A stretch of 61,055 bases of DNA from Spirochaetaceae bacterium (GCA_007695055.1 REEM01000222.1:1-61055), one strand, 5' to 3'; shown: positions 50,302 through 60,740, counted from the first letter of the stretch. Notes: a model not told the origin generated them from the sequence alone. A program made the numbers and translations.

Positions 50302-51403
50302 TTACATAGCGTCCCGATTATTTCGCAAATACGCCGTTATGAACTCATCAATCTCACCGTCCATCACAGCTTGCACGTTTCCGGTTTCAACCTTGGTGCG
50401 ATGATCCTTGACCATAGTATAGGGTTGAAAGACGTAGGAGCGTATTTGGTTACCCCACCCAATATCCCGTTTCTCATCAGCCTTTGCGGCGTTCTCTTTG
50501 TCGCGCTCGGCACGATAATGGTCGTAAAGCCGGGAACGCAGCATTTTCATGGCCGTGTCACGGTTTTTGTGCTGACTGCGCTCGTTCTGGCACTGAACCA
50601 CGATACCGGTCGCAAGGTGCGTCAGCCGGATTGCTGAGTCGGTCTTGTTCACATGCTGACCACCGGCGCCGCTTGCTCGGTAGGTGTCAACGCGGAGATC
50701 CTCGGGACGGATTTCTACATCGATATCGTCTTCTATAACTGGAGAGGCATACACAGACGCAAAGGAGGTGTGTCTCCGGCCTCCTGAATCAAAGGGCGAT
50801 ATTCGAACTAAACGGTGAATGCCGGTCTCACAGCGCAAATAGCCATAGGCATTCTCACCCTTGACCTCGATCGTGACAGATTTAATGCCGCCCTCGGCCT
50901 CTTGCAGATCAAGAATAGTCGTGGCGAAGTTATTGCGCTCCATCCAGCGGCTGTACATACGGAGCAACATACTGACCCAGTCACATGCCTCGGTTCCGCC
51001 AGCACCGGAGTGTATGGTAAGAAAGGCCGGTGATGCGTCAAGCTCATCTTGGAAGTACTCGCGCACCATGAGCTTATCAAAGCGGTCACGGATACTCTTG
51101 AGCCCTTCCTCAATCTCGCGTGCAACAGTCTCATCATCTTCCTCAATGCCGAGGGTCTGGAGGGCCACAAGATCCTCAATTTCATCTTTGAGTTGCGTCC
51201 ACGGTTCAATTCGATTCTTGTACCTGGTGAGTTCGCTGAGAGTTTTTTCGGCCGCGTTACGGTCGTTCCAGAACTCAGGTTCACCAGTTTTTGTTTCTAA
51301 ATCCTTAATGAGGGCAGCTACCCGTTCGGGGTCAAAGCCCCCTCCAAATATCAAGGATTTCCGACTTCAGTTCTGCAATTTTATCACCAAGATCCGCAAG
51401 CAT
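50302..51403 (-). CDS. prfB: Peptide chain release factor 2, with programmed +1 frameshift after codon 23
   Basis: ATG 51403 (GGAGG RBS) MLADLGDKIAELKSEILDIWRGL then TGA; the +1 frame continues DPERV...EFWND...GAGGTEACDW...LVRISPFD...GAGGQHVN. The track start at 51354 is an artefact. Confidence 0.95.
51331..51346 (-). promoter_or_regulatory. prfB +1 ribosomal frameshift site
   Basis: Minus strand TGG AGG GGG CTT TGA C: internal SD GGAGG, 3-nt spacer, CTT-TGA-C slippery site. Confidence 0.93.
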
Positions 51404-51589: not shown

Positions 51590-52882
51590 ATGAGAAGCCG
51601 AAGCACACATGACCGGTCAAGTGGCGGGGCGGCAGTATGGCTGCCGGTTCTGTTGAGCGCTGTTTTGATCCTCTCCCCCTTTCCAGGAGCCCTACCCGTA
51701 CTGGGCGCGCAAACTGCCAGTTCCGAGGCATCAACTGTCCGCAGCCCCTCACGGGTTCGTGCCGCCGAGCTTGACGGTGAGGTGCTGGTCACCTGGCGGG
51801 ATGCGGCCGGATATGAAGGTGCCTACCGGATTTGGCGTTCCGCATCCGCCTTTGAGGCCGGTGCTTTTGAGGAGTCGTCCGACCTCTTTCTTGCCGGTAC
51901 CGTGTCTTCCGGTATCGAGTCACTTACTGATCGACCGGCAGTACCGGGTGCCTATTACTACGCAGTGACAACAGACATAGAAACGCCGTATCTCATTGAA
52001 CAACGGAACTATCTTCCTCGGCCAGTACGTGTGGTCATGACGGCTGAGCAGGCTGAGGAGCCTGCACGCGTTAGATCACTTTCGGTTGAGACTCACAACA
52101 GCGAGGTCATACTGCGCTTTGAAGCTTCCCGCCATGGACGCCGTCTATCCGCCTATGCCTCAACCGAAGCCATTGAGAGCAGTGAAGATCTTCAGCGAGC
52201 GGTTCGTCTTGCGGTGTTTGACAGTGACCAGCGCGAATATCGCGACTACCCAGTACCGGGCATACCAACCTACTACGCGGTGCTTGATGCCGAACAGGTC
52301 ATAATCGGTGAAGGCGCGCTAGTCCCGGGTCAAAATGCAACGGTGCAGCCAGTCCGGATTGCACTTGGTTCGGTTCTCCGTGGTACAGGCGCGCCCCAGG
52401 TAGGTGCCCGTCGAGAGGCTCCAATACCGCTATTGCGCATGCCTTGGCTCCCGGCGACCGGTGCCTATGCACTTGATCTAAGCACAGCACCCGAAGAACT
52501 TGACAGCGAGACTCAGGCGGCCTTAGACGCAATCCTTGCTCATCACGGTGCGCCTGAGCGAATGCCGCCGGTGCCCACAATACTCCCTGGCGACAGAGAT
52601 GCACCCGGAACCGGACTGCGAAGTAGTCTCACGACCGTGCTTAACGGGCCCTTCTCACGCACTGAATGGGCCGAGGCAGAGATGCAGCTGAGTAACTTGC
52701 TTACCGTCGCTTCATCTTCTATGTACCGTGCACGCGTTCAATTTTATAGGGGACAGTGTTTGTACTTTCTTGGCCGCTTCAACGAGGCTGCGTTGGCTTT
52801 CGTTGATGCTCGAGACCAACTCTTTGCGGAGTCACAGCAGTGGCTAGATGCTGCGCTGCGTGCAGGTGATGCCAGCCGCTGA
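51590..52882 (+). CDS. Exported hypothetical protein, two FN3-like domains and a C-terminal TPR
   Basis: Hydrophobic leader; repeats EVLVTW...YRIWRS...AYYYAVT and EVILRF...YRDYP...TYYAVL; TPR-like QFYRGQCLYFLGRFNEAALAF. Confidence 0.65.
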   Translation: MRSRSTHDRSSGGAAVWLPVLLSAVLILSPFPGALPVLGAQTASSEASTVRSPSRVRAAELDGEVLVTWRDAAGYEGAYRIWRSASAFEAGAFEESSDLFLAGTVSSGIESLTDRPAVPGAYYYAVTTDIETPYLIEQRNYLPRPVRVVMTAEQAEEPARVRSLSVETHNSEVILRFEASRHGRRLSAYASTEAIESSEDLQRAVRLAVFDSDQREYRDYPVPGIPTYYAVLDAEQVIIGEGALVPGQNATVQPVRIALGSVLRGTGAPQVGARREAPIPLLRMPWLPATGAYALDLSTAPEELDSETQAALDAILAHHGAPERMPPVPTILPGDRDAPGTGLRSSLTTVLNGPFSRTEWAEAEMQLSNLLTVASSSMYRARVQFYRGQCLYFLGRFNEAALAFVDARDQLFAESQQWLDAALRAGDASR

Positions 52883-52886
52883 GGCC

Positions 52887-54905
52887 TTACTCGGTTTTTA
52901 GCGACAACTCAATGAGCAGTTGCTCGTCCTCGCCAGGATTCAACTCAAGTGGAATGCGAAAGACAGAACAGCAATGCTGGAATCCCTCAACATAGCCTAC
53001 CACATCCCGTGAAACCGAGTAGACTGGATGGCTCCATAACTCAACCGGGGCGGATAATGCTACGCGCACAACCGCACCGTTGAGCAGATCCCTATATCGT
53101 AATTCTCGGACCTTCTGCACAACCTTTTCTTGCGGCCCAATCTCCTGTTTGCTTCCATCTTCGTGGGCAACATGCACCTCAAGCGCTCGCACAGCATCTG
53201 AGGCAAACGAGAAGTTAGCTTCGCAACCATACATACAACTCAGTGCCTCGGTACCAGTGTTGGAAAAGCGGTACTGCACACGAAGTGTGGCACCCGAAAA
53301 AACGAAACTCTTCTCAAGTCGGATAACCACTCCCGGTCGCAGCTCCTGTTCCGCTACGAATGAGAGAGCATGGTGTTCGCGGTCCAGATCCTGGACACGA
53401 TATAGACTGTGCCCAACATCGCAGTACTCCGGCACATCGCCGCGGAAGAAACGCTCAGGACCGTAGTCTGACTCCCAGAAATGGTCAACAAAAGTCCGCT
53501 TCTCGTAGCTGTCGTAAATAAACTGTCGTTGCTCAGGATCATGGTAGGACTCTTCCTGGCGACTGAGAGTATCAAGGTAGTTCATGGATACCGGCAGATA
53601 ATCGAGCTCGAATAAACGCCCACCGCGTTGATGAAGGTAGGCATTAATGCTCTGGCCTTGAAAGATGTACTCGGCAAGCCCGTCCATGTCAAAGTCCACC
53701 GAGACAATGGATGAGATAAATACGCCCCGCTCACGAGTAACCTTTTCCGCCTCGATCAGCGCCGAGTACACCTGTTTGCGCAACGTGTTGCGGTAGATGC
53801 CGCCGGGAGGCCCATGCCAGTAGGCGCTATGACACTGTCCGCGCCACAGTTCCTCGCGCGCTGCTTGTTTGCGGTACTTGTCTCCTCGGATCTGATTCAC
53901 CAGAATATGGGTATACTGCATTTTCGCATACATGAGGTTGCTTTCTGGATAGCGTGCAAGAAACTGCCGGAAAAAGCCACCAAAAAGATAGCCGTTACGG
54001 CCAATCCCATCTGCAACACTCTCGCTGAGACCCCGAAACCCCTTTTGCTTTGCTGCAGGCAGCGCCCACAACATCATGTCCTCATATGAAGTCGAGGGAA
54101 AATACGCACGCGTTCGCGGTTGGTCGTTCTTCAGATAGCGCCACGGATGTATGGGTTCAAGCCAGTCCCGATTCTTCTTCACCAGGTTCAGGAATCTTGA
54201 AAGCCACTCCTCTTCATAGGCAATCCGATAACTGTCCGCTGTACCACCTAGTCGCTCACCCTCATCAAGAATGACCACGACCTTGTTCTCATCTTCACAG
54301 GCAAGATCCCTCAGGTGCTCGATCATATCTTCCGGGGAGTCCGTCAACAGTTTCCAACGTGATGTCTTGCAGATAGGAAACACAACGACAGTCTTACCTT
54401 GATCCTCGGTGATACAGGGCCGATACAGGTCATCTCCCGAGAGGCCCGCCGTAATGAAGTGATAGTCGGCCAGAAATGTATACTCCATACCACTATTGCG
54501 CAGTGCCGAAGGCAACGAGGGCTCCCACACAAGTTCAGTTAGCCACGCGCCGCGTGGCCGCCGACCAAACTGTTTGCGGAGAAAGGTAGTCATGCGTTCA
54601 ATTTGCCCAAGTCGGTCGGTGTGGGGAATGAGAGGGAGTACCGGGTCGTAAAACCCGCCGCCAAGAAACTCCAACTGCTTGCGCGAGGCCATCTCCGAGA
54701 GTACGTCTATGAACTCCGAATGGTGCTTCTCCAACCACTGAAACAACGAACCCGAGTAGTGAAGCGTTATGGGTATCTCAGGATGGTTGTAGAGGGTCCT
54801 CACAAAAGGCTTGTAGGCCCGCTGATAAATGCTCTCAAAGCTTTCATCATCGCTACCGAGCGGTTGCGTATTGCTGGTTCCAAATACAAGTTTTAAACTC
54901 TGCAT
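52887..54905 (-). CDS. GH57 family 4-alpha-glucanotransferase/alpha-amylase-like protein
   Basis: TLHYSGSLFQWL, EFLGGGFYDPVLPLIP, PRGAWLTELVWEP, TSYEDMMLWAL, YPESNLMYAKM, GQCHSAYWHG..GGIY, DFDMDG, C-terminal beta-domain. Start ATG 54905. Confidence 0.88.
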   Translation of the reverse strand: MQSLKLVFGTSNTQPLGSDDESFESIYQRAYKPFVRTLYNHPEIPITLHYSGSLFQWLEKHHSEFIDVLSEMASRKQLEFLGGGFYDPVLPLIPHTDRLGQIERMTTFLRKQFGRRPRGAWLTELVWEPSLPSALRNSGMEYTFLADYHFITAGLSGDDLYRPCITEDQGKTVVVFPICKTSRWKLLTDSPEDMIEHLRDLACEDENKVVVILDEGERLGGTADSYRIAYEEEWLSRFLNLVKKNRDWLEPIHPWRYLKNDQPRTRAYFPSTSYEDMMLWALPAAKQKGFRGLSESVADGIGRNGYLFGGFFRQFLARYPESNLMYAKMQYTHILVNQIRGDKYRKQAAREELWRGQCHSAYWHGPPGGIYRNTLRKQVYSALIEAEKVTRERGVFISSIVSVDFDMDGLAEYIFQGQSINAYLHQRGGRLFELDYLPVSMNYLDTLSRQEESYHDPEQRQFIYDSYEKRTFVDHFWESDYGPERFFRGDVPEYCDVGHSLYRVQDLDREHHALSFVAEQELRPGVVIRLEKSFVFSGATLRVQYRFSNTGTEALSCMYGCEANFSFASDAVRALEVHVAHEDGSKQEIGPQEKVVQKVRELRYRDLLNGAVVRVALSAPVELWSHPVYSVSRDVVGYVEGFQHCCSVFRIPLELNPGEDEQLLIELSLKTE

Positions 54906-54929
54906 ACTCATCTCGCTCAGAAAACTCAA

Positions 54930-55007: not shown

Positions 55008-55595
55008 CTAAAACAATGCAGACAGAAAAAAACTATCAAAAGCATGAAAGGCCATGGCCATAAGACCGGCGCTAATAATAACTATAGGGGTGCCACGAAA
55101 GGCCGGGTGAATCCATTCAGACTCCATATGTTCACGTATCGCCGAAAGCAAGACCAATACAAGCATTACCCCGAAACCAGCCCCTATTCCTGCAGCCATC
55201 ACCTCGCCAATGCCAAGGTCAATGTCTATCACGATCAGGGATAAACCAAACACAGCGCAGTTCGCTGCAAAGAGCGGCAGATACTCGTTCATAAGCGCTG
55301 CAAATGCTCCACCTATTCGTTCGGCACCAAGCGCAAAGCCCTGTACAATTCCTGCAATCAGCAACAGCAGTACAAAGGTGCGGATCATTGTGAGTCCCAA
55401 GGGTTGTAGCACCAGCGAATCCAGAAACCACGCTATCATTGCGGTCAACACCAAAACGAAGCTGAGGACTGCCCCAAAGCTCAAGGAGGAGCGCAAGTCA
55501 CGCGAGTACTCAAGTGCCGGACACATTCCGACAAAGTAGTACAACACGAGGTTATTAACCAGAAGAAACTGAAAAACAAGTCCCACAGCACTCAT
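55008..55595 (-). CDS. rnfA: RnfA/NqrE family membrane subunit
   Basis: NNLVLYYFVGMCPAL, YLPLFAANCAVFG, GAGFG...IREH, FRGTPIVIISAGLMAMAF; both conserved Cys retained. Confidence 0.88.
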   Translation of the reverse strand: MSAVGLVFQFLLVNNLVLYYFVGMCPALEYSRDLRSSLSFGAVLSFVLVLTAMIAWFLDSLVLQPLGLTMIRTFVLLLLIAGIVQGFALGAERIGGAFAALMNEYLPLFAANCAVFGLSLIVIDIDLGIGEVMAAGIGAGFGVMLVLVLLSAIREHMESEWIHPAFRGTPIVIISAGLMAMAFHAFDSFFLSALF

Positions 55596-56209
55596 AGACC
55601 TGTTTCCTCCGACTCGCTGTGCAGACGTAGATAGGCTACCAAAGCTCGGATATAGCCAAGGACCAACAATGCACCGGCCGCCGAACCAAATATCCGCACC
55701 GGAGCCTGTGATAGTACGAGTACCTGTACCGAGGCCTGACCCCAGCTCAATCCGCCGGTGCCAAAAATCTCACGAATACCGGCAATGAGGCTCAAAGCGA
55801 CGAGAAAGGACAGTCCGGTATACGCGGCCGATAGAGTAGCCTCGCCCGGCCCTTTGCCCGCCTGTGCACCGCCCATAAGCCGCAGCACCAGGCAGTTAAC
55901 CGCAATAAGGGGAACAAAGACACCGAGTCGCATGCGCATTTCTGGATAGACAAGCTCCAGCAGGACCTCCACCACGGTAGTGAGCGCGGCTATGACTGCC
56001 AGCGATGTCAAAAACCCCGCCCGCCCAGAGAGATGCGGTTCAACAATACCCAACAACGGTGCTGCTGCCACAAGCACGAACAATGTGCACAGTCCAAGAA
56101 TCATACTCTGAGACAGATGTGTTGTCACAAACAAGGCCGGGCAGAGACCAACAAGCCCAACAAAGACTGGATTTTCGCGTAAAGGTGTATCCACTGAAGC
56201 ACTATCCAT
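55592..56209 (-). CDS. rnfE: RnfE/NqrD family membrane subunit
   Basis: Start ATG 56209. ENPVFVGLVGLCPALFVTT, LGVFVPLIAVNCLVL, IREIFGTG; both conserved Cys retained. Confidence 0.86.
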   Translation of the reverse strand: MDSASVDTPLRENPVFVGLVGLCPALFVTTHLSQSMILGLCTLFVLVAAAPLLGIVEPHLSGRAGFLTSLAVIAALTTVVEVLLELVYPEMRMRLGVFVPLIAVNCLVLRLMGGAQAGKGPGEATLSAAYTGLSFLVALSLIAGIREIFGTGGLSWGQASVQVLVLSQAPVRIFGSAAGALLVLGYIRALVAYLRLHSESEETGL

Positions 56210-57299
56210 GCATTTCCCCTTGAGCTCGCCGCATGCCAAAAATTCGGGGTGCCGTTAGCCGGTTGATTAACGGCACACACACGTTCATGACAAGCAGTGC
56301 CGTAGCACAGCCACCAGTATCCATCCCAAAATGGCGGAAAAGATACCCCAACACCCCAGCCCCAACGCCGTAAACCCACATACCAAAACCGGTGTTGGGT
56401 GAGGATGCTGGATCCGTTGCGAAATAGAACGCCGTGAAGAGAAAACCGCCAGACAGAATTGCAAACAACACATCGCCCTCGAAAAGCCCGAGGCCGTACG
56501 GAATCCCTCCAAAGGCACGAGCCATGAAGGCAAATGCGACAAAGAAAGATGTAGGAATCTGCCATGCCGCGGTACCGGAGGCAAGGAGGTATACACTTCC
56601 AAGCAACAGAAGCACCGCCGAGACCTCACCAATTGCACCAAGGGTATTGCCGAAGAACAAGTCCAAATACCCATGCGGAAGATCTACCCCAATGCGAGAG
56701 AAGACCTGCTGATTTACGAAGTCGGTAAACTCTATGTCCAGAGCAGATGTCGGATATCCGGATGCCCGCAATGCTCCAATAGGTCCGGTTCCCCCTGAAC
56801 CAGCCTCTACCGTGTCGCGAACAATACTAAGTGGAGTAGCCCCGCTCCAACCTTCGGGAAAGCCGGCGGGTGCGGTCCAACGGGACAGCTCCTCCGGCCA
56901 ACTAATCTGTGCGAACACGCGTGCCCCAAGTGCCGGATTCATCCAGTTACTGCCAAGGCCACCAAAGGTCATTTTGATAACGGCAATTGCAAATACAGCC
57001 GCCAGAAAGGGAATAAATACCGGAACACCCGGAGGCATAGAGAGCCCCAGCAGAAGACCCGTGAGAACCGCACTACCGTCCTGCAGCGTGGTTCGCTCCT
57101 TATGGACAGTCAGCGCAAACTCGGTAAGACATGCCCCAACGACGGCTGATAGAACAGGGAAGAGCGCCCCAAGACCAAAAAGAAAGAGTCCCCAGAGGAC
57201 TACCGGAAGCAGGCAGATCGAGACACTCCACATCATGCCGTGCGTGGTTAATGCAGAGAAATACAGTGGCCCCTTGCTCGGCATAGCGGTGGAGCTCAT
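56202..57299 (-). CDS. rnfD: RnfD/NqrB family membrane subunit
   Basis: DGSAVLTGLLLGLSMPP, FGGLGSNWMNPAL, SGATPL (covalent-FMN Thr motif), GAIGEVS, GGFLFTAFYFATDPASSP. Confidence 0.9.
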   Translation of the reverse strand: MSSTAMPSKGPLYFSALTTHGMMWSVSICLLPVVLWGLFLFGLGALFPVLSAVVGACLTEFALTVHKERTTLQDGSAVLTGLLLGLSMPPGVPVFIPFLAAVFAIAVIKMTFGGLGSNWMNPALGARVFAQISWPEELSRWTAPAGFPEGWSGATPLSIVRDTVEAGSGGTGPIGALRASGYPTSALDIEFTDFVNQQVFSRIGVDLPHGYLDLFFGNTLGAIGEVSAVLLLLGSVYLLASGTAAWQIPTSFFVAFAFMARAFGGIPYGLGLFEGDVLFAILSGGFLFTAFYFATDPASSPNTGFGMWVYGVGAGVLGYLFRHFGMDTGGCATALLVMNVCVPLINRLTAPRIFGMRRAQGEMHG

Positions 57300-58654
57300 A
57301 TCTGGTTCCCGAACTGCGTATTCTGAAGCTCGGCCCTGTAGTCCAGAAGATGCTCAGACTTAGCCTCCGCAATGCGCTGCATGAGAGGTATTCGGGAAGG
57401 ACAGACATGAGAGCAACAGCCACATTCAGTACAGGCATTAAGCCCCTTAGCTTCGGCCTTTGTTTGCCAACCATGTTCAATGAGCTTATAGAGACGTTGC
57501 GGCTCGAGCCCCATGGGACAGGCTCGTACACAGCGACCGCAACTAATGCAGCTACGACGCTCAGCAGCACGGATCTCGGACTGCGTGAGTGCCAGAATTC
57601 CCCTTGTTGTCTTGGTGACAGGAGTTTCGAGGTCGGTCACCTCGAACCCGGTCAGAGGATCTCCAGACACAATTCGCACCGCCGAGGCAACTAGACCGCC
57701 GCACTCCTCTATGACCTCGCGGAAGGTGGTACCAAGACGCACCTTAACATTCCCCGGCCGGGCAATACCGCCGCCAGCAACCGTCACAACACGCTCAACA
57801 CACGGTTTACCAAACAACACGGCTTCTGCCGTCGCATATGCGGTTGCAGCACCAAGCACGAAACAGGAAACCTCTCGCTCATCCTTACCATACGGAATCT
57901 CTTTACGCTGTACCGACCTGAGCAATTGAGGCACCGCAGCCTGAGGGTATTTTGTTCCAACTTCAAGGATACGGGCGAGAGACTCACGCTCACTCAGTTC
58001 GCGCCGCAACCTGCGGACAGCCTCTTTCTTGTCCGCACCGATAGCAAAGACCACGTCCTCGACATGCAGGAGATGGGCAATGATCTCTGCGCCGGTCACG
58101 AGTTCCGCGCAGTGCTCCCGTAGAAGTCTATCTTCAGAACTGAGGTAAGGGCCGGACTCAGCACCGTTTACGACAACACGGCTGACTCCTGCTCGGCGCG
58201 CGTACTGGAGGCTGCGATGCAGTGGATGCGGATTCCCACTTAACTCCACAACACCGAGATCACGAAGCAGAGTAACCACGTCTTTGCGTGGCATGCTCCG
58301 CCAATCACGCGCATCAAGATCCTTTCCCAGCTTGGAAAAGGCGCCCGAAAGCTCAATGACTACTGCTTCACACTCGCCGCACTCCGGGCTCCAGATTGTG
58401 CGAATTCTCCTCACAATGCCGGGGACGGGTGCATGAACGTGAGCACCATCAGCAGGCGCCCGTCCAATGAGCATTCCCTCGGTAACCCGACTGCCTGGTT
58501 CAACTAACCGTTCACAGCTGGGACCCAGATGCTGTCGTAAAGGCACAATACAGATAGGCGGAATTGCGGAGTTCCAAATTGCTCCGTCCCGCGTGAGATC
58601 TTTATCGTCATGTGGATGGATACCACCCTTAGGGAAGCTTCGGACTATGGTCAT
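57296..58654 (-). CDS. rnfC: RnfC-like iron-sulfur protein with degenerate flavin/NAD-binding motifs
   Basis: GGIHP, PLRQHLG, HAPVPG, NGAES.PYL, KYPQ, ERVVTV, CISCGRCVRACP and CTECGCCSHVCP (2x[4Fe-4S]). Confidence 0.88.
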   Translation of the reverse strand: MTIVRSFPKGGIHPHDDKDLTRDGAIWNSAIPPICIVPLRQHLGPSCERLVEPGSRVTEGMLIGRAPADGAHVHAPVPGIVRRIRTIWSPECGECEAVVIELSGAFSKLGKDLDARDWRSMPRKDVVTLLRDLGVVELSGNPHPLHRSLQYARRAGVSRVVVNGAESGPYLSSEDRLLREHCAELVTGAEIIAHLLHVEDVVFAIGADKKEAVRRLRRELSERESLARILEVGTKYPQAAVPQLLRSVQRKEIPYGKDEREVSCFVLGAATAYATAEAVLFGKPCVERVVTVAGGGIARPGNVKVRLGTTFREVIEECGGLVASAVRIVSGDPLTGFEVTDLETPVTKTTRGILALTQSEIRAAERRSCISCGRCVRACPMGLEPQRLYKLIEHGWQTKAEAKGLNACTECGCCSHVCPSRIPLMQRIAEAKSEHLLDYRAELQNTQFGNQI

Positions 58655-60216
58655 ACTACTTCGATGTTCCTTCGTTTATAGAACAATTGGGTGACTCGGT
58701 CACCTTTGTCGATTGTCGGGAATACTGTCCTTATACGTACCAACACGGGCACGAGCAAGAGCAACACAGCCGGAATAACGCTACGAATGAGTTCCGACCG
58801 GGCCCAGTATACGTGTCGAACCGGGCGGTACTCAACCCCGTTTGGTAAACCTGCCGCCAGCAACATCGACTCTATACCCAAATGCTCATTCTCACCTATC
58901 GCTTCCAGCTCACCAGCGATCCAATCCTCGTCAAAACTGAAAGCCACCCGGTCACGCCGCTCAATTCGCCCGTTATTGCGCTCAAACTCCGGAATACTGA
59001 GATCTTCACCTCTTTCCGGGAGCCTGAACTCCCACCCGTACATAAAGGCCTCTTGGAATGCCCGATGTGCAAGATAGTCCTCGATCGTGGGGAGCTGCGT
59101 CTCGTTCACCGAGTTGAGAACCATATCACTTCGTTCAGCTGTGTTCACCGGTTGCGGCAAGGCTGGAATACTCATCTCATTTTCGGAGCTCGCTACGGGA
59201 ACAAGCAGCAAGACCAGCAGGGCCCCCAAGGGAGCCAAATAGAGATCCCCCGGAAGTCTGTGCGGCCGGAGCCGTTCGGGCAGAATGGCTATGGGTTCAA
59301 ACACGCCGTGCTCGCGCATAGCTCTACGGCGGTGCTCAACCGCTATCCCTGCCGTAGCTGCGGCACCGATACCCGCCAAAGTCAGGAGCAGGCTGAGGAG
59401 AGCCCGCGGTGAGTACCACAGAACCATTCCCAACGCCACAATCCCTGCCAATGCCAGATATATAACCAGGAATCGAAACTGAGCCCGGAATCGTGCTGCG
59501 GAACTGAACGTCACCCCTTCACTCGCGCCAACGCCAAAGGCAGCCATAATACCCGGATAGGATATCACCCACGACAGGTATACCAACATCCCAGCCGCTG
59601 CACCAAAGGGATCTCCAGTACCTAGTGTTGCCAGAATGAGCAGCAGTCCAGCGCTAAGTACAAAGGCAGCGCGACGTCGCGACCAGATGGTTGATCCGAG
59701 TACCGCACAAAAGACCAAGATAGGTAACAGCATGCTGTCAGGGACGCTTGTGTCAGCGTTCAGGAGTGGAACTCCCCTCTCCTGTAGCGTGGGGCCAATG
59801 CGTTCCATGAGCGTCGCGGCATCACCTGGAATGTAGATTACGTGGTAAGACTCACCTTCTTGCTGAACCTGGAAGTAGTTCGACACACTCTGCATGTAAG
59901 GATCAAGTCGAGGGTCCCTTTGGTCAAATCGGGACTCAAGATCCGAAAGTTTTACAGTTGAAAGGGGACCGAAATCATTGTACCAAAAGCGAGTAGTCTC
60001 CGCACCAATATAGGAATCTACACCGGCCGCGTTCAGGGTAGAACTCAGCTCGGCGAGGTCGTAGGAACCATGCACTACGAAGGTAGCAAACCCTGGCCAG
60101 ATGCTGTCGCCCAGCCCGGCAGGGCTGAGAGTTCGTGTCCCAGCCAGTGCGAGCGAGAAGACCAAAATGGCCAGGATAAGGAGTTGCTGAGGGCCCCGGC
60201 TTTCTACGTTTTTCAT
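58651..60216 (-). CDS. Hypothetical polytopic membrane protein translationally coupled to rnfC
   Basis: 521 aa: N-terminal TM, ~130-aa soluble domain, central cluster of about 5-6 hydrophobic helices, second soluble domain, C-terminal TM; ATGA overlap with rnfC at 58651-58654. Confidence 0.72.
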   Translation of the reverse strand: MKNVESRGPQQLLILAILVFSLALAGTRTLSPAGLGDSIWPGFATFVVHGSYDLAELSSTLNAAGVDSYIGAETTRFWYNDFGPLSTVKLSDLESRFDQRDPRLDPYMQSVSNYFQVQQEGESYHVIYIPGDAATLMERIGPTLQERGVPLLNADTSVPDSMLLPILVFCAVLGSTIWSRRRAAFVLSAGLLLILATLGTGDPFGAAAGMLVYLSWVISYPGIMAAFGVGASEGVTFSSAARFRAQFRFLVIYLALAGIVALGMVLWYSPRALLSLLLTLAGIGAAATAGIAVEHRRRAMREHGVFEPIAILPERLRPHRLPGDLYLAPLGALLVLLLVPVASSENEMSIPALPQPVNTAERSDMVLNSVNETQLPTIEDYLAHRAFQEAFMYGWEFRLPERGEDLSIPEFERNNGRIERRDRVAFSFDEDWIAGELEAIGENEHLGIESMLLAAGLPNGVEYRPVRHVYWARSELIRSVIPAVLLLLVPVLVRIRTVFPTIDKGDRVTQLFYKRRNIEVV

Positions 60217-60260: not shown

Positions 60261-60740
60261 TTAGAGAATACTGAACGCAACCGCGATGAAGAACCCAAGG
60301 AGCATCCCTACCGAAACCTCGGCAACGGTATGCCCATTAACCTCACGCACCGGACTAAACTCAATTCCATAGCGCCTGTTTAGCTCAATTCCTAGCCGGT
60401 TGAGACTCTGCGCCTGAACTCCGGCGGCACGCCGAACGCCAAGCGCATCCCGAATTACCAGTAAACTGAAAACCAGAGAGATGCTGAAGAGTGGGTCACC
60501 CACTCCGTACTCAAAGCCAACCGCTGTCGCCATGGCGGTCACGGTTGATGAATGACTAGACGGCATTCCGCCCGTCTTCCAGAACAGGGTTACCATGAGA
60601 TCACGAGAGTTCCGCGAACGTTGCTTAACGGCCTCGATCAGAGCCTTTAGGATCTGCGCAACGAACCAGCTGAAGAACGCCGACGAAAACAGCGGGCTTC
60701 TAAAGAGTTCGTACAAGTAGTCAACAGCGGGCGGTCGCAT
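60261..60740 (-). CDS. Divergent PAP2 family protein (DUF212)
   Basis: AQILKAL, KTGGMPSSHSSTV, VIRDALGVRRAAGVQA, GHTVAEVSVGMLLG. Confidence 0.9.
   Translation of the reverse strand: MRPPAVDYLYELFRSPLFSSAFFSWFVAQILKALIEAVKQRSRNSRDLMVTLFWKTGGMPSSHSSTVTAMATAVGFEYGVGDPLFSISLVFSLLVIRDALGVRRAAGVQAQSLNRLGIELNRRYGIEFSPVREVNGHTVAEVSVGMLLGFFIAVAFSIL

Follow-up and report, generated by a model that had tools for sequence, protein, structure and literature searches.

An rnfC-D-E-A gene cluster from a Spirochaetaceae bacterium belongs to a known but little-understood spirochaete system, of which it is a still more reduced variant maintained by selection. The cluster occupies positions 55008 to 58654 on the minus strand of a 61,055-nucleotide stretch of DNA (GCA_007695055.1 REEM01000222.1:1-61055; this whole stretch is referred to as the window), which is one contig of an assembly of 3.4 Mb, 92% complete, that came out of a soda-lake metagenome. 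In anaerobes, Rnf is a central enzyme of energy conservation. It has six subunits (RnfA, B, C, D, E and G), of which the window cluster encodes C, D, E and A only. The reading put forward here, to which a probability of about one half is given as a whole, is that the cluster is a derivative of Rnf at a conserved locus, that it descends from a canonical operon, that it is kept by selection, and that it would serve as a one-way electron wire from RnfC to RnfD.

The four genes are paralogues of canonical rnf genes and follow one another on the minus strand: rnfC at 57296-58654 (RnfC2, 452 amino acids (aa)), rnfD at 56202-57299 (RnfD2, 365 aa), rnfE at 55592-56209 (RnfE2, 205 aa) and rnfA at 55008-55595 (RnfA2, 195 aa). 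The longest open reading frame (ORF) for rnfE begins at 56239, and the ATG at 56209 was used as its start. When the junctions were read directly from the sequence, the gene for a membrane protein without a Pfam family, here called X, was found to share an ATGA with rnfC, while C and D overlap by 4 nucleotides (nt), D and E by 8 nt (ATGGATAG) and E and A by 4 nt; overlaps of 4 and 8 nt imply that rnfC-D-E-A is translationally coupled. No ORF for rnfG or rnfB is present in the cluster, since the 8-nt D/E overlap leaves no space for rnfG and a GH57 gene comes 78 nt after rnfA, where rnfB is absent. The first-pass annotation, a reading of the sequence by itself, had described just such overlapping genes with no room for rnfG and no rnfB past rnfA, and both the ORFs and the junction sequence confirm it. 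Neither a domain fused to RnfD2, by Pfam search, nor an FMN_bind gene was found in the cluster. Against the NCBIfam models, RnfC (TIGR01945, 365.6 bits, cut-off 246) and RnfD (TIGR01946, 220.3 bits, cut-off 207; PF03116, 294.7 bits) pass, and RnfE (TIGR01948, 105.9 bits, cut-off 213; PF02508, 117 bits) and RnfA (TIGR01943, 135.5 bits, cut-off 229; PF02508, 111 bits) fall below the cut-offs.

The cofactor sites of the four proteins have met different fates. An alignment of RnfC2 with the solved chains 7zc6_C, 8ahx_C and 9eri_C and with 120 homologues revealed that the canonical motifs for flavin and nicotinamide adenine dinucleotide (NAD(H)) are replaced, all five of them (GGAxFP, ECEPY, GAEKQL, VxNVxT and GGPMMG), and that the Fe-S Cys are kept; the altered strings earlier quoted for these motifs are all present. 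Among 71 canonical RnfCs, 88 columns are conserved at >=90%, and the window RnfC departs at 22 of them, of which 19 fall in the 40 columns of the NuoF-like domain and 3 in the 16 columns of the SLBB domain, with 0/14 in the N-terminal barrel and 0/18 in the ferredoxin domain. Such a clustering (22/56 vs 0/32 elsewhere) is significant by Fisher's test, p = 8e-6. By homology to NuoF/Nqo1, the changed residues are presumably those of the Gly-rich loop for flavin mononucleotide (FMN) and NADH, the Glu of ECEPY, the Glu of GAEKQL and the Asn of VxNVxT. From these motifs and the NuoF homology we infer that RnfC2 lost FMN/NADH binding. Both [4Fe-4S] motifs, CISCGRCVRACP and CTECGCCSHVCP, are retained with all 8 Fe-S Cys, and the fold is that of RnfC: the AlphaFold2 (AF2) model, at a predicted local distance difference test (pLDDT) of 92.6, has a template-modelling (TM) score of 0.90-0.93 to solved RnfC vs 0.68 to NqrA. 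In RnfD2, the Thr of WSGATPL, a predicted site of covalent FMN, is kept together with the riboflavin/Na+ site residues NPAL and ATD, and NPAL, SGATPL and ATD align with the matching residues of 7zc6_D and 9eri_D. Both Cys are kept in RnfE2 (GLCPAL and VNC, aligned with 9eri_E and 7zc6_E) as well as in RnfA2 (GMCPAL and ANC, aligned with 7zc6_A). The earlier statement that both CxxCxxCxxxCP motifs, the SGAT Thr of RnfD and the four RnfA/E Cys are intact thus holds against the solved chains.

In the solved Rnf complexes, electrons pass from RnfB through the [2Fe-2S] cluster of A/E, the FMN of G, the FMN of D, riboflavin, and the 4Fe-4S clusters and FMN of C to NAD+ (PMC9588780, PMC11889175, PMC12174285), with RnfG as the shuttle that is indispensable for transfer between the metal centre of A/E and the RnfD FMN (29 Å vs 8 Å; PMC9588780; PMC11889175). 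Without G, the U-shaped electron path is broken, and because G, B and the RnfC flavin site are all missing, the canonical loop would be impossible for the cluster alone. Gene content and motifs accordingly support the proposal in the first-pass annotation that the cluster lacks an NAD(H)/FMN terminus, a periplasmic shuttle with FMN and a subunit for the entry of ferredoxin electrons; judged by its motifs and anatomy, the cluster by itself should be unable to couple ferredoxin oxidation to NAD+ reduction. The published working model for Treponema pallidum (PMC4436053, PMC7512555) would have it work even now as a ferredoxin (or flavodoxin):NAD+ ion pump, by means of cryptic cofactor sites, and the preserved RnfC fold, at a TM score of 0.9 to solved RnfC, speaks for it. 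Such a pump is nevertheless very improbable, as the flavin domain has replacements at 22 of its 56 near-invariant residues, all five motifs included, RnfG and RnfB are missing in cis, and a canonical Rnf encoded in the same genome already covers the reaction.

The best guess for the function is a one-way Fe-S/flavin electron path through RnfC and RnfD. A cytoplasmic one-electron carrier would dock on RnfC and hand over single electrons, which would move from one 4Fe-4S cluster to the other, then to riboflavin and to the periplasm-facing FMN of RnfD, while RnfA and RnfE would be kept as a scaffold or as half of an ion path. The periplasmic partner would be encoded outside the cluster, the candidates being a free secreted FMN_bind protein, the canonical RnfG and an NqrC-like protein. 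The segment of the path that is still complete, namely the sites for RnfC 4Fe-4S, riboflavin and RnfD FMN, is conserved in 10/11 lineages of the CDEA type, and a flavinylatable Thr/Ser in RnfD is likewise retained in 10/11 of these lineages. One-way conduits based on RnfD have a precedent in the two-subunit Nqr/Rnf-like complexes (PMC11334425).

The genome encodes further parts that bear on this assignment. A complete canonical rnfBCDGEA operon is located on another contig (C135:12241-17294), with RnfG at 129 bits (cut-off 102), RnfB at 69.8 bits (cut-off 68.7) and RnfC at 548 bits, all of which pass. The first-pass annotation had suggested looking for rnfG, rnfB and a second canonical operon elsewhere in the genome; the second operon exists and supplies rnfG and rnfB in trans, yet not as stand-alone genes. 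An ApbE flavin transferase is encoded in the same genome, and RnfA2 and RnfE2 are only ~30% identical to the canonical A1 and E1.

These findings bring in the main rival of the one-way wire, a hybrid complex in which RnfC2-D2-E2-A2 borrows RnfG and RnfB (or an NqrC-like protein) and runs a U-shaped, ion-coupled loop towards a non-NAD acceptor on RnfC2, so that it is in effect an isoform with an alternative output module. The hybrid is the better account of the conserved A/E Cys, since the [2Fe-2S] Cys and the RnfD Thr are kept under selection and make full sense only with both redox neighbours; RnfG and RnfB are available from the same genome, and a canonical operon is present in every checkable genome with a CDEA-type copy. 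It is still considered unlikely, because A2 and E2, divergent as they are from A1 and E1, would need to bind the same transmembrane helices of G and B, and because cis G fades gradually in other lineages (SGAT is kept, then lost, and then the ORF is deleted) with no sudden loss upon a trans copy. Moreover, in six genomes with the degraded copy only (G102, G190, G275, G320, G350 and G368) no RnfG match was obtained at E<=1e-5.

Other members of the Rnf/Nqr families are scattered over the same assembly. A secreted, stand-alone FMN_bind protein of 106 aa (C15:66991-67311, plus strand; PF04205, 62.5 bits) carries the flavinylation motif VVTGAT and could be a free periplasmic flavoprotein that partners the RnfD FMN, comparable to TP0171, which is reportedly a flavinylated lipoprotein of T. 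pallidum. An nqrB-C-D-E-F-like cluster (C243:32757-36676, minus strand) has no adjoining nqrA, and its NqrB-like protein is of RnfD size (314 aa). A search of the whole 92%-complete genome gave no NqrA; the idea that RnfC2 is the missing NqrA of the nqrBCDEF-like cluster was considered and set aside, the absence of nqrA being all that speaks for it. Outside the rnf and nqr operons, a solo RnfD/NqrB-family gene (C14:2028-2903, minus strand; 291 aa) keeps a TAAT flavinylation-type motif, and another gene of this family, cut by the contig end (C200:2-439, minus strand), adjoins tatC.

The descent of the window cluster was followed in trees. Its RnfC, RnfD and X are placed with the X-linked spirochaete clade in the RnfC tree and in the X+C+D tree. 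All degraded copies fall into a single clade of the RnfC tree, which lies within the canonical X-linked RnfCs. In the X+C+D tree, degraded and canonical lineages alternate, and at least five changes of state are needed for G and at least four for B. Since the degraded copies are nested in a clade of complete rnfCDGEAB operons, they descend from such an operon, and the window cluster arose by degradation of a canonical rnfCDGEAB at the same locus and is not a separate invention. Losses of G and of B each occurred more than once. A single degraded clade was not rejected by the approximately unbiased (AU) test (p = 0.35); repeated independent degradation was therefore not accepted as established, as this value leaves one to three origins.

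Degradation goes together with the presence of another Rnf. All 14 genomes with a degraded X-linked copy (13 searchable genomes and the window's own) have a second, canonical RnfC, vs 1-2 of the 14 with a canonical X-linked copy. In a phylum-wide sample, canonical and degraded copies occur together in 41/51 genomes; the X-linked copy is canonical and the sole Rnf in two genomes, and the degraded copy stands alone in seven.

Selection on the cluster was estimated from the ratio of nonsynonymous to synonymous substitution rates (dN/dS, omega) between the window and two relatives (L020/L015), at a dS of 0.5-1.1. The values are 0.08/0.07 for C, 0.05/0.06 for D, 0.09/0.08 for E and 0.06/0.06 for A, against 0.006-0.11 for the canonical operon of the same genome pair; purifying selection on C, D, E and A is thus as strong as on the canonical operon, and the dN/dS of 0.05-0.09, within the canonical range, shows that the four genes are not pseudogenes. 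The three RnfC domains lie at 0.06-0.11, with the former flavin domain at 0.06-0.08. As this domain is selected like the rest of the protein, the first-pass view of RnfC as a plain ferredoxin-like domain proved too simple; the roles put forward in the same place for the whole module, a repurposed redox or ion-translocating device or a redox sensor, are candidates. A functionless relic on its way to deletion is barely credible. What would be later stages of such a course are seen in relatives, with CD only in L045 and L072 and X and GH57 only in L044 and L067; however, the window has four intact, translationally coupled ORFs, its dN/dS equals that of the canonical operon, and the derived RnfC residues are fixed among relatives as distant as 75% identity.

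The surrounding locus is conserved across the class Spirochaetia. A synteny survey, which included the gene contexts of RnfC homologues, took in 54 loci on contigs of metagenomes and genomes plus 22 loci of relatives, all of Spirochaetia. Searching species-representative genomes with the X protein gave 47 loci, every one titled as a spirochaete; the X profile matches 49/401 Spirochaetota genomes, again all of this class. The shared frame consists of a divergent pseudouridine synthase, DUF212, X, rnfC-D-(G)-E-A-(B) and GH57. DUF212 is found upstream of X in 33/54 contig loci, some of which are cut by the contig end, and in 17/18 relatives, and GH57 comes after rnfA or rnfB in most loci that extend so far. 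This survey agrees with two statements in the first-pass annotation: that a Treponema locus of this kind lies near PAP2 (DUF212), GH57 and pseudouridine synthase genes, the T. pallidum version of which is published (PMC4436053), and that the system may be spirochaete-wide and little characterised.

Within this frame, the rnf genes form a series of states. Full CDGEAB sets with canonical motifs occupy 27/54 contig loci and, among the relatives, L078. Intermediate loci have either a divergent G-like ORF together with B, some of these ORFs still carrying SGAT, or a G-like ORF without B. The CDEA state, with neither G nor B, was found in the window and 12 others; the CD-only state was seen in the two loci already mentioned, and no rnf gene at all is left in L044 and L067, the latter of which belongs to the same order as the window. 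In treponeme-type copies, the NAD/FMN motifs of RnfC, the Thr and ATD of RnfD and the Cys of RnfA/E are missing, and only the eight Fe-S Cys of RnfC remain.

Based on the treponeme-type copies, a non-redox role needs to be weighed, in which the membrane part is an ion channel, transporter or scaffold gated by the RnfC di-cluster as a redox or oxygen sensor, and the remaining flavin and [2Fe-2S] sites are leftovers or structural. The di-[4Fe-4S] domain of RnfC is the only universal cofactor site of the degraded family, with all 8 Fe-S Cys retained in 42/43 degraded RnfCs, and copies devoid of the RnfD Thr, ATD and A/E Cys persist even in a genome of 1.14 Mb. A sensor or other non-redox role would be the best fit to the treponeme-type copies but a poorer fit to the window copy, whose RnfD flavin residues and A/E Cys reside in genes at omega 0.05-0.09 and are kept in most CDEA lineages, which argues for their use. 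On balance, such a role is quite unlikely.

Several points weigh against the one-way RnfC-RnfD wire. The four RnfA/E Cys are conserved though the wire gives the [2Fe-2S] cluster no redox partner, and they would fit a full loop with RnfG and RnfB in trans better. The donor and the acceptor of the wire are candidates only, and RnfC2 may bind FMN/NADH in a cryptic manner. The contrast in second RnfCs between degraded and canonical X-linked genomes (p ~1e-6) was calculated with phylogeny ignored, and the one metatranscriptome that belongs to the source study, its sole RNA run, yielded 0 reads for the locus. Finally, since treponeme-type copies lack the RnfD flavin site and the A/E Cys, the function common to the whole family may not be transmembrane electron transfer.

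X is a Spirochaetia-specific protein of ~500 aa. In the window it is encoded at 58651-60216 on the minus strand (521 aa), where the shared ATGA couples its translation to that of rnfC, and its AF2 model comprises 8 transmembrane helices and two extramembrane alpha/beta domains that, placed by charge distribution, are probably periplasmic. DPRLDPY and AHRAYQ are its conserved motifs, and it has no conserved Cys. Neither Pfam nor NCBIfam gave a match; a fold search returned only weak RND/SecDF-like matches (E ~1e-2, TM score ~0.2), and when the X profile was run in a word-indexed search for homologues, only close relatives came up. The dN/dS of X is 0.18-0.20 vs the same two relatives. X adjoins rnfC in all surveyed loci that have both, and it remains with DUF212 and GH57 in L044 and L067 after the loss of rnf. 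X and DUF212 were considered as stand-ins for G and B and ruled out, as both are present in full CDGEAB loci and both outlast total rnf loss. Because X stands beside canonical and degraded rnf alike and outlasts rnf, it is neither a replacement for G/B nor an obligate Rnf subunit.

The locus begins with the DUF212 (divergent PAP2) gene at 60261-60740 (PF02681, 141 bits) and ends with a GH57 gene of the glucanotransferase/amylase type at 52887-54929 (PF03065, PF09094, PF09095), both on the minus strand. Past GH57, on the opposite strand, a 430-aa ORF without a Pfam family (51590-52882, plus strand) has an N-terminal signal-like segment, and a no-family ORF of similar size occurs at the same place and on the opposite strand in L015, L016 and L018. 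Further along, a release factor 2 gene (50302-51354, minus strand) seems to start ~25 codons late in its frame; the missing ~25 first codons of prfB are presumably what the usual programmed +1 frameshift would lead one to expect.

The energy metabolism proposed for the syphilis spirochaete is built around the non-canonical Rnf, and the present analysis makes this complex a class-wide derivative of normal Rnf that is selected, usually stands beside a canonical Rnf and has its NAD(H) site gone. Being selected without an NAD(H) site and alongside a canonical Rnf, it probably has a task that differs from the textbook reaction. It is possible, and is proposed here tentatively, that the X-linked degraded Rnf is a distinct functional class, stripped, perhaps repeatedly, of its NAD(H) module, RnfG and RnfB once a second Rnf was present, that it works as a one-way wire or a redox-gated ion path, and that the assignment of the T. 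pallidum complex as a flavodoxin:NAD+ pump is wrong. If so, the window copy would be an informative intermediate, as it keeps the RnfD flavin sites and the A/E cluster. The soda-lake form, with its membrane flavin and Fe-S sites, offers such an intermediate in free-living, non-pathogenic relatives for working out the function of the family.

Among known systems, the closest is the T. pallidum operon tp0153-tp0147, to which the window cluster appears to be orthologous as a locus. It is co-transcribed and was described as a "non-canonical Rnf" (Deka et al. 2015, PMC4436053), with TP0152 as RnfC, TP0151 as RnfD and TP0149 as RnfE-like and with the RnfG-type flavinylation motif absent (PMC4436053), and it was modelled as a flavodoxin:NAD+ pump (PMC7512555). 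Both loci contain DUF212, rnfC, rnfD, an rnfE-like and an rnfA-like gene and GH57, both are without RnfB and the RnfG-type flavinylation motif, and in both the RnfC keeps 8 Fe-S Cys and has lost the NAD/FMN motifs. To our knowledge, the T. pallidum complex has never been purified. Unlike the window, T. pallidum has retained an ORF of 231 aa between D and E and is without X, whereas the window, unlike the treponeme copies, keeps the flavinylation Thr and riboflavin-site residues of RnfD and the four RnfA/E Cys. A single-contig genome of 1,139,633 bp, probably of T. pallidum (L085, G102:C1:166500-180500), has the order DUF212, C, D, 231-aa ORF, E, A, GH57. While the window copy coexists with a canonical Rnf, this degraded operon is the sole Rnf of its genome; it lacks the RnfC NAD/FMN motifs, the RnfD Thr/ATD and the four RnfA/E Cys, and its genome is among those with no RnfG match at E<=1e-5. 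Such a state sits badly with the published flavodoxin:NAD+ pump model.

Canonical Rnf (RnfABCDGE; 7zc6, 8ahx, 9eri) shares with the window the homologous C, D, E and A subunits, the [4Fe-4S] motifs, the RnfD Thr and the A/E Cys; it differs in that the window is without RnfG, RnfB and the residues of the RnfC FMN/NADH pocket, and has RnfE and RnfA below the NCBIfam cut-offs. NqrA of Na+-NQR, a homologue of RnfC, no longer has its NAD(H)/flavin function and still sits on the RnfD/NqrB subunit (PMC12174285), which sets a precedent for cofactor loss in an RnfC subunit, but NqrA lost both Fe-S clusters and RnfC2 keeps them. The window cluster is not a Na+-NQR: no NqrF was found in it, Nqr models give RnfC2 only 42-62 bits (cut-off 321-450), and all four proteins are far below the Nqr cut-offs. 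The two-subunit Nqr/Rnf-like complexes (Meheust 2021; Huang et al. 2024, PMC11334425) resemble the window in having a cut-down RnfD/NqrB-like core and in the proposed one-way flow of electrons to an extracytosolic flavin. In those complexes, RnfD is fused to an NAD-binding domain and lacks the flavinylation Thr, and an RnfG/NqrC-like subunit is kept; the window cluster is the reverse, in that G is missing, the Thr is still there and the cytoplasmic module is an Fe-S RnfC.

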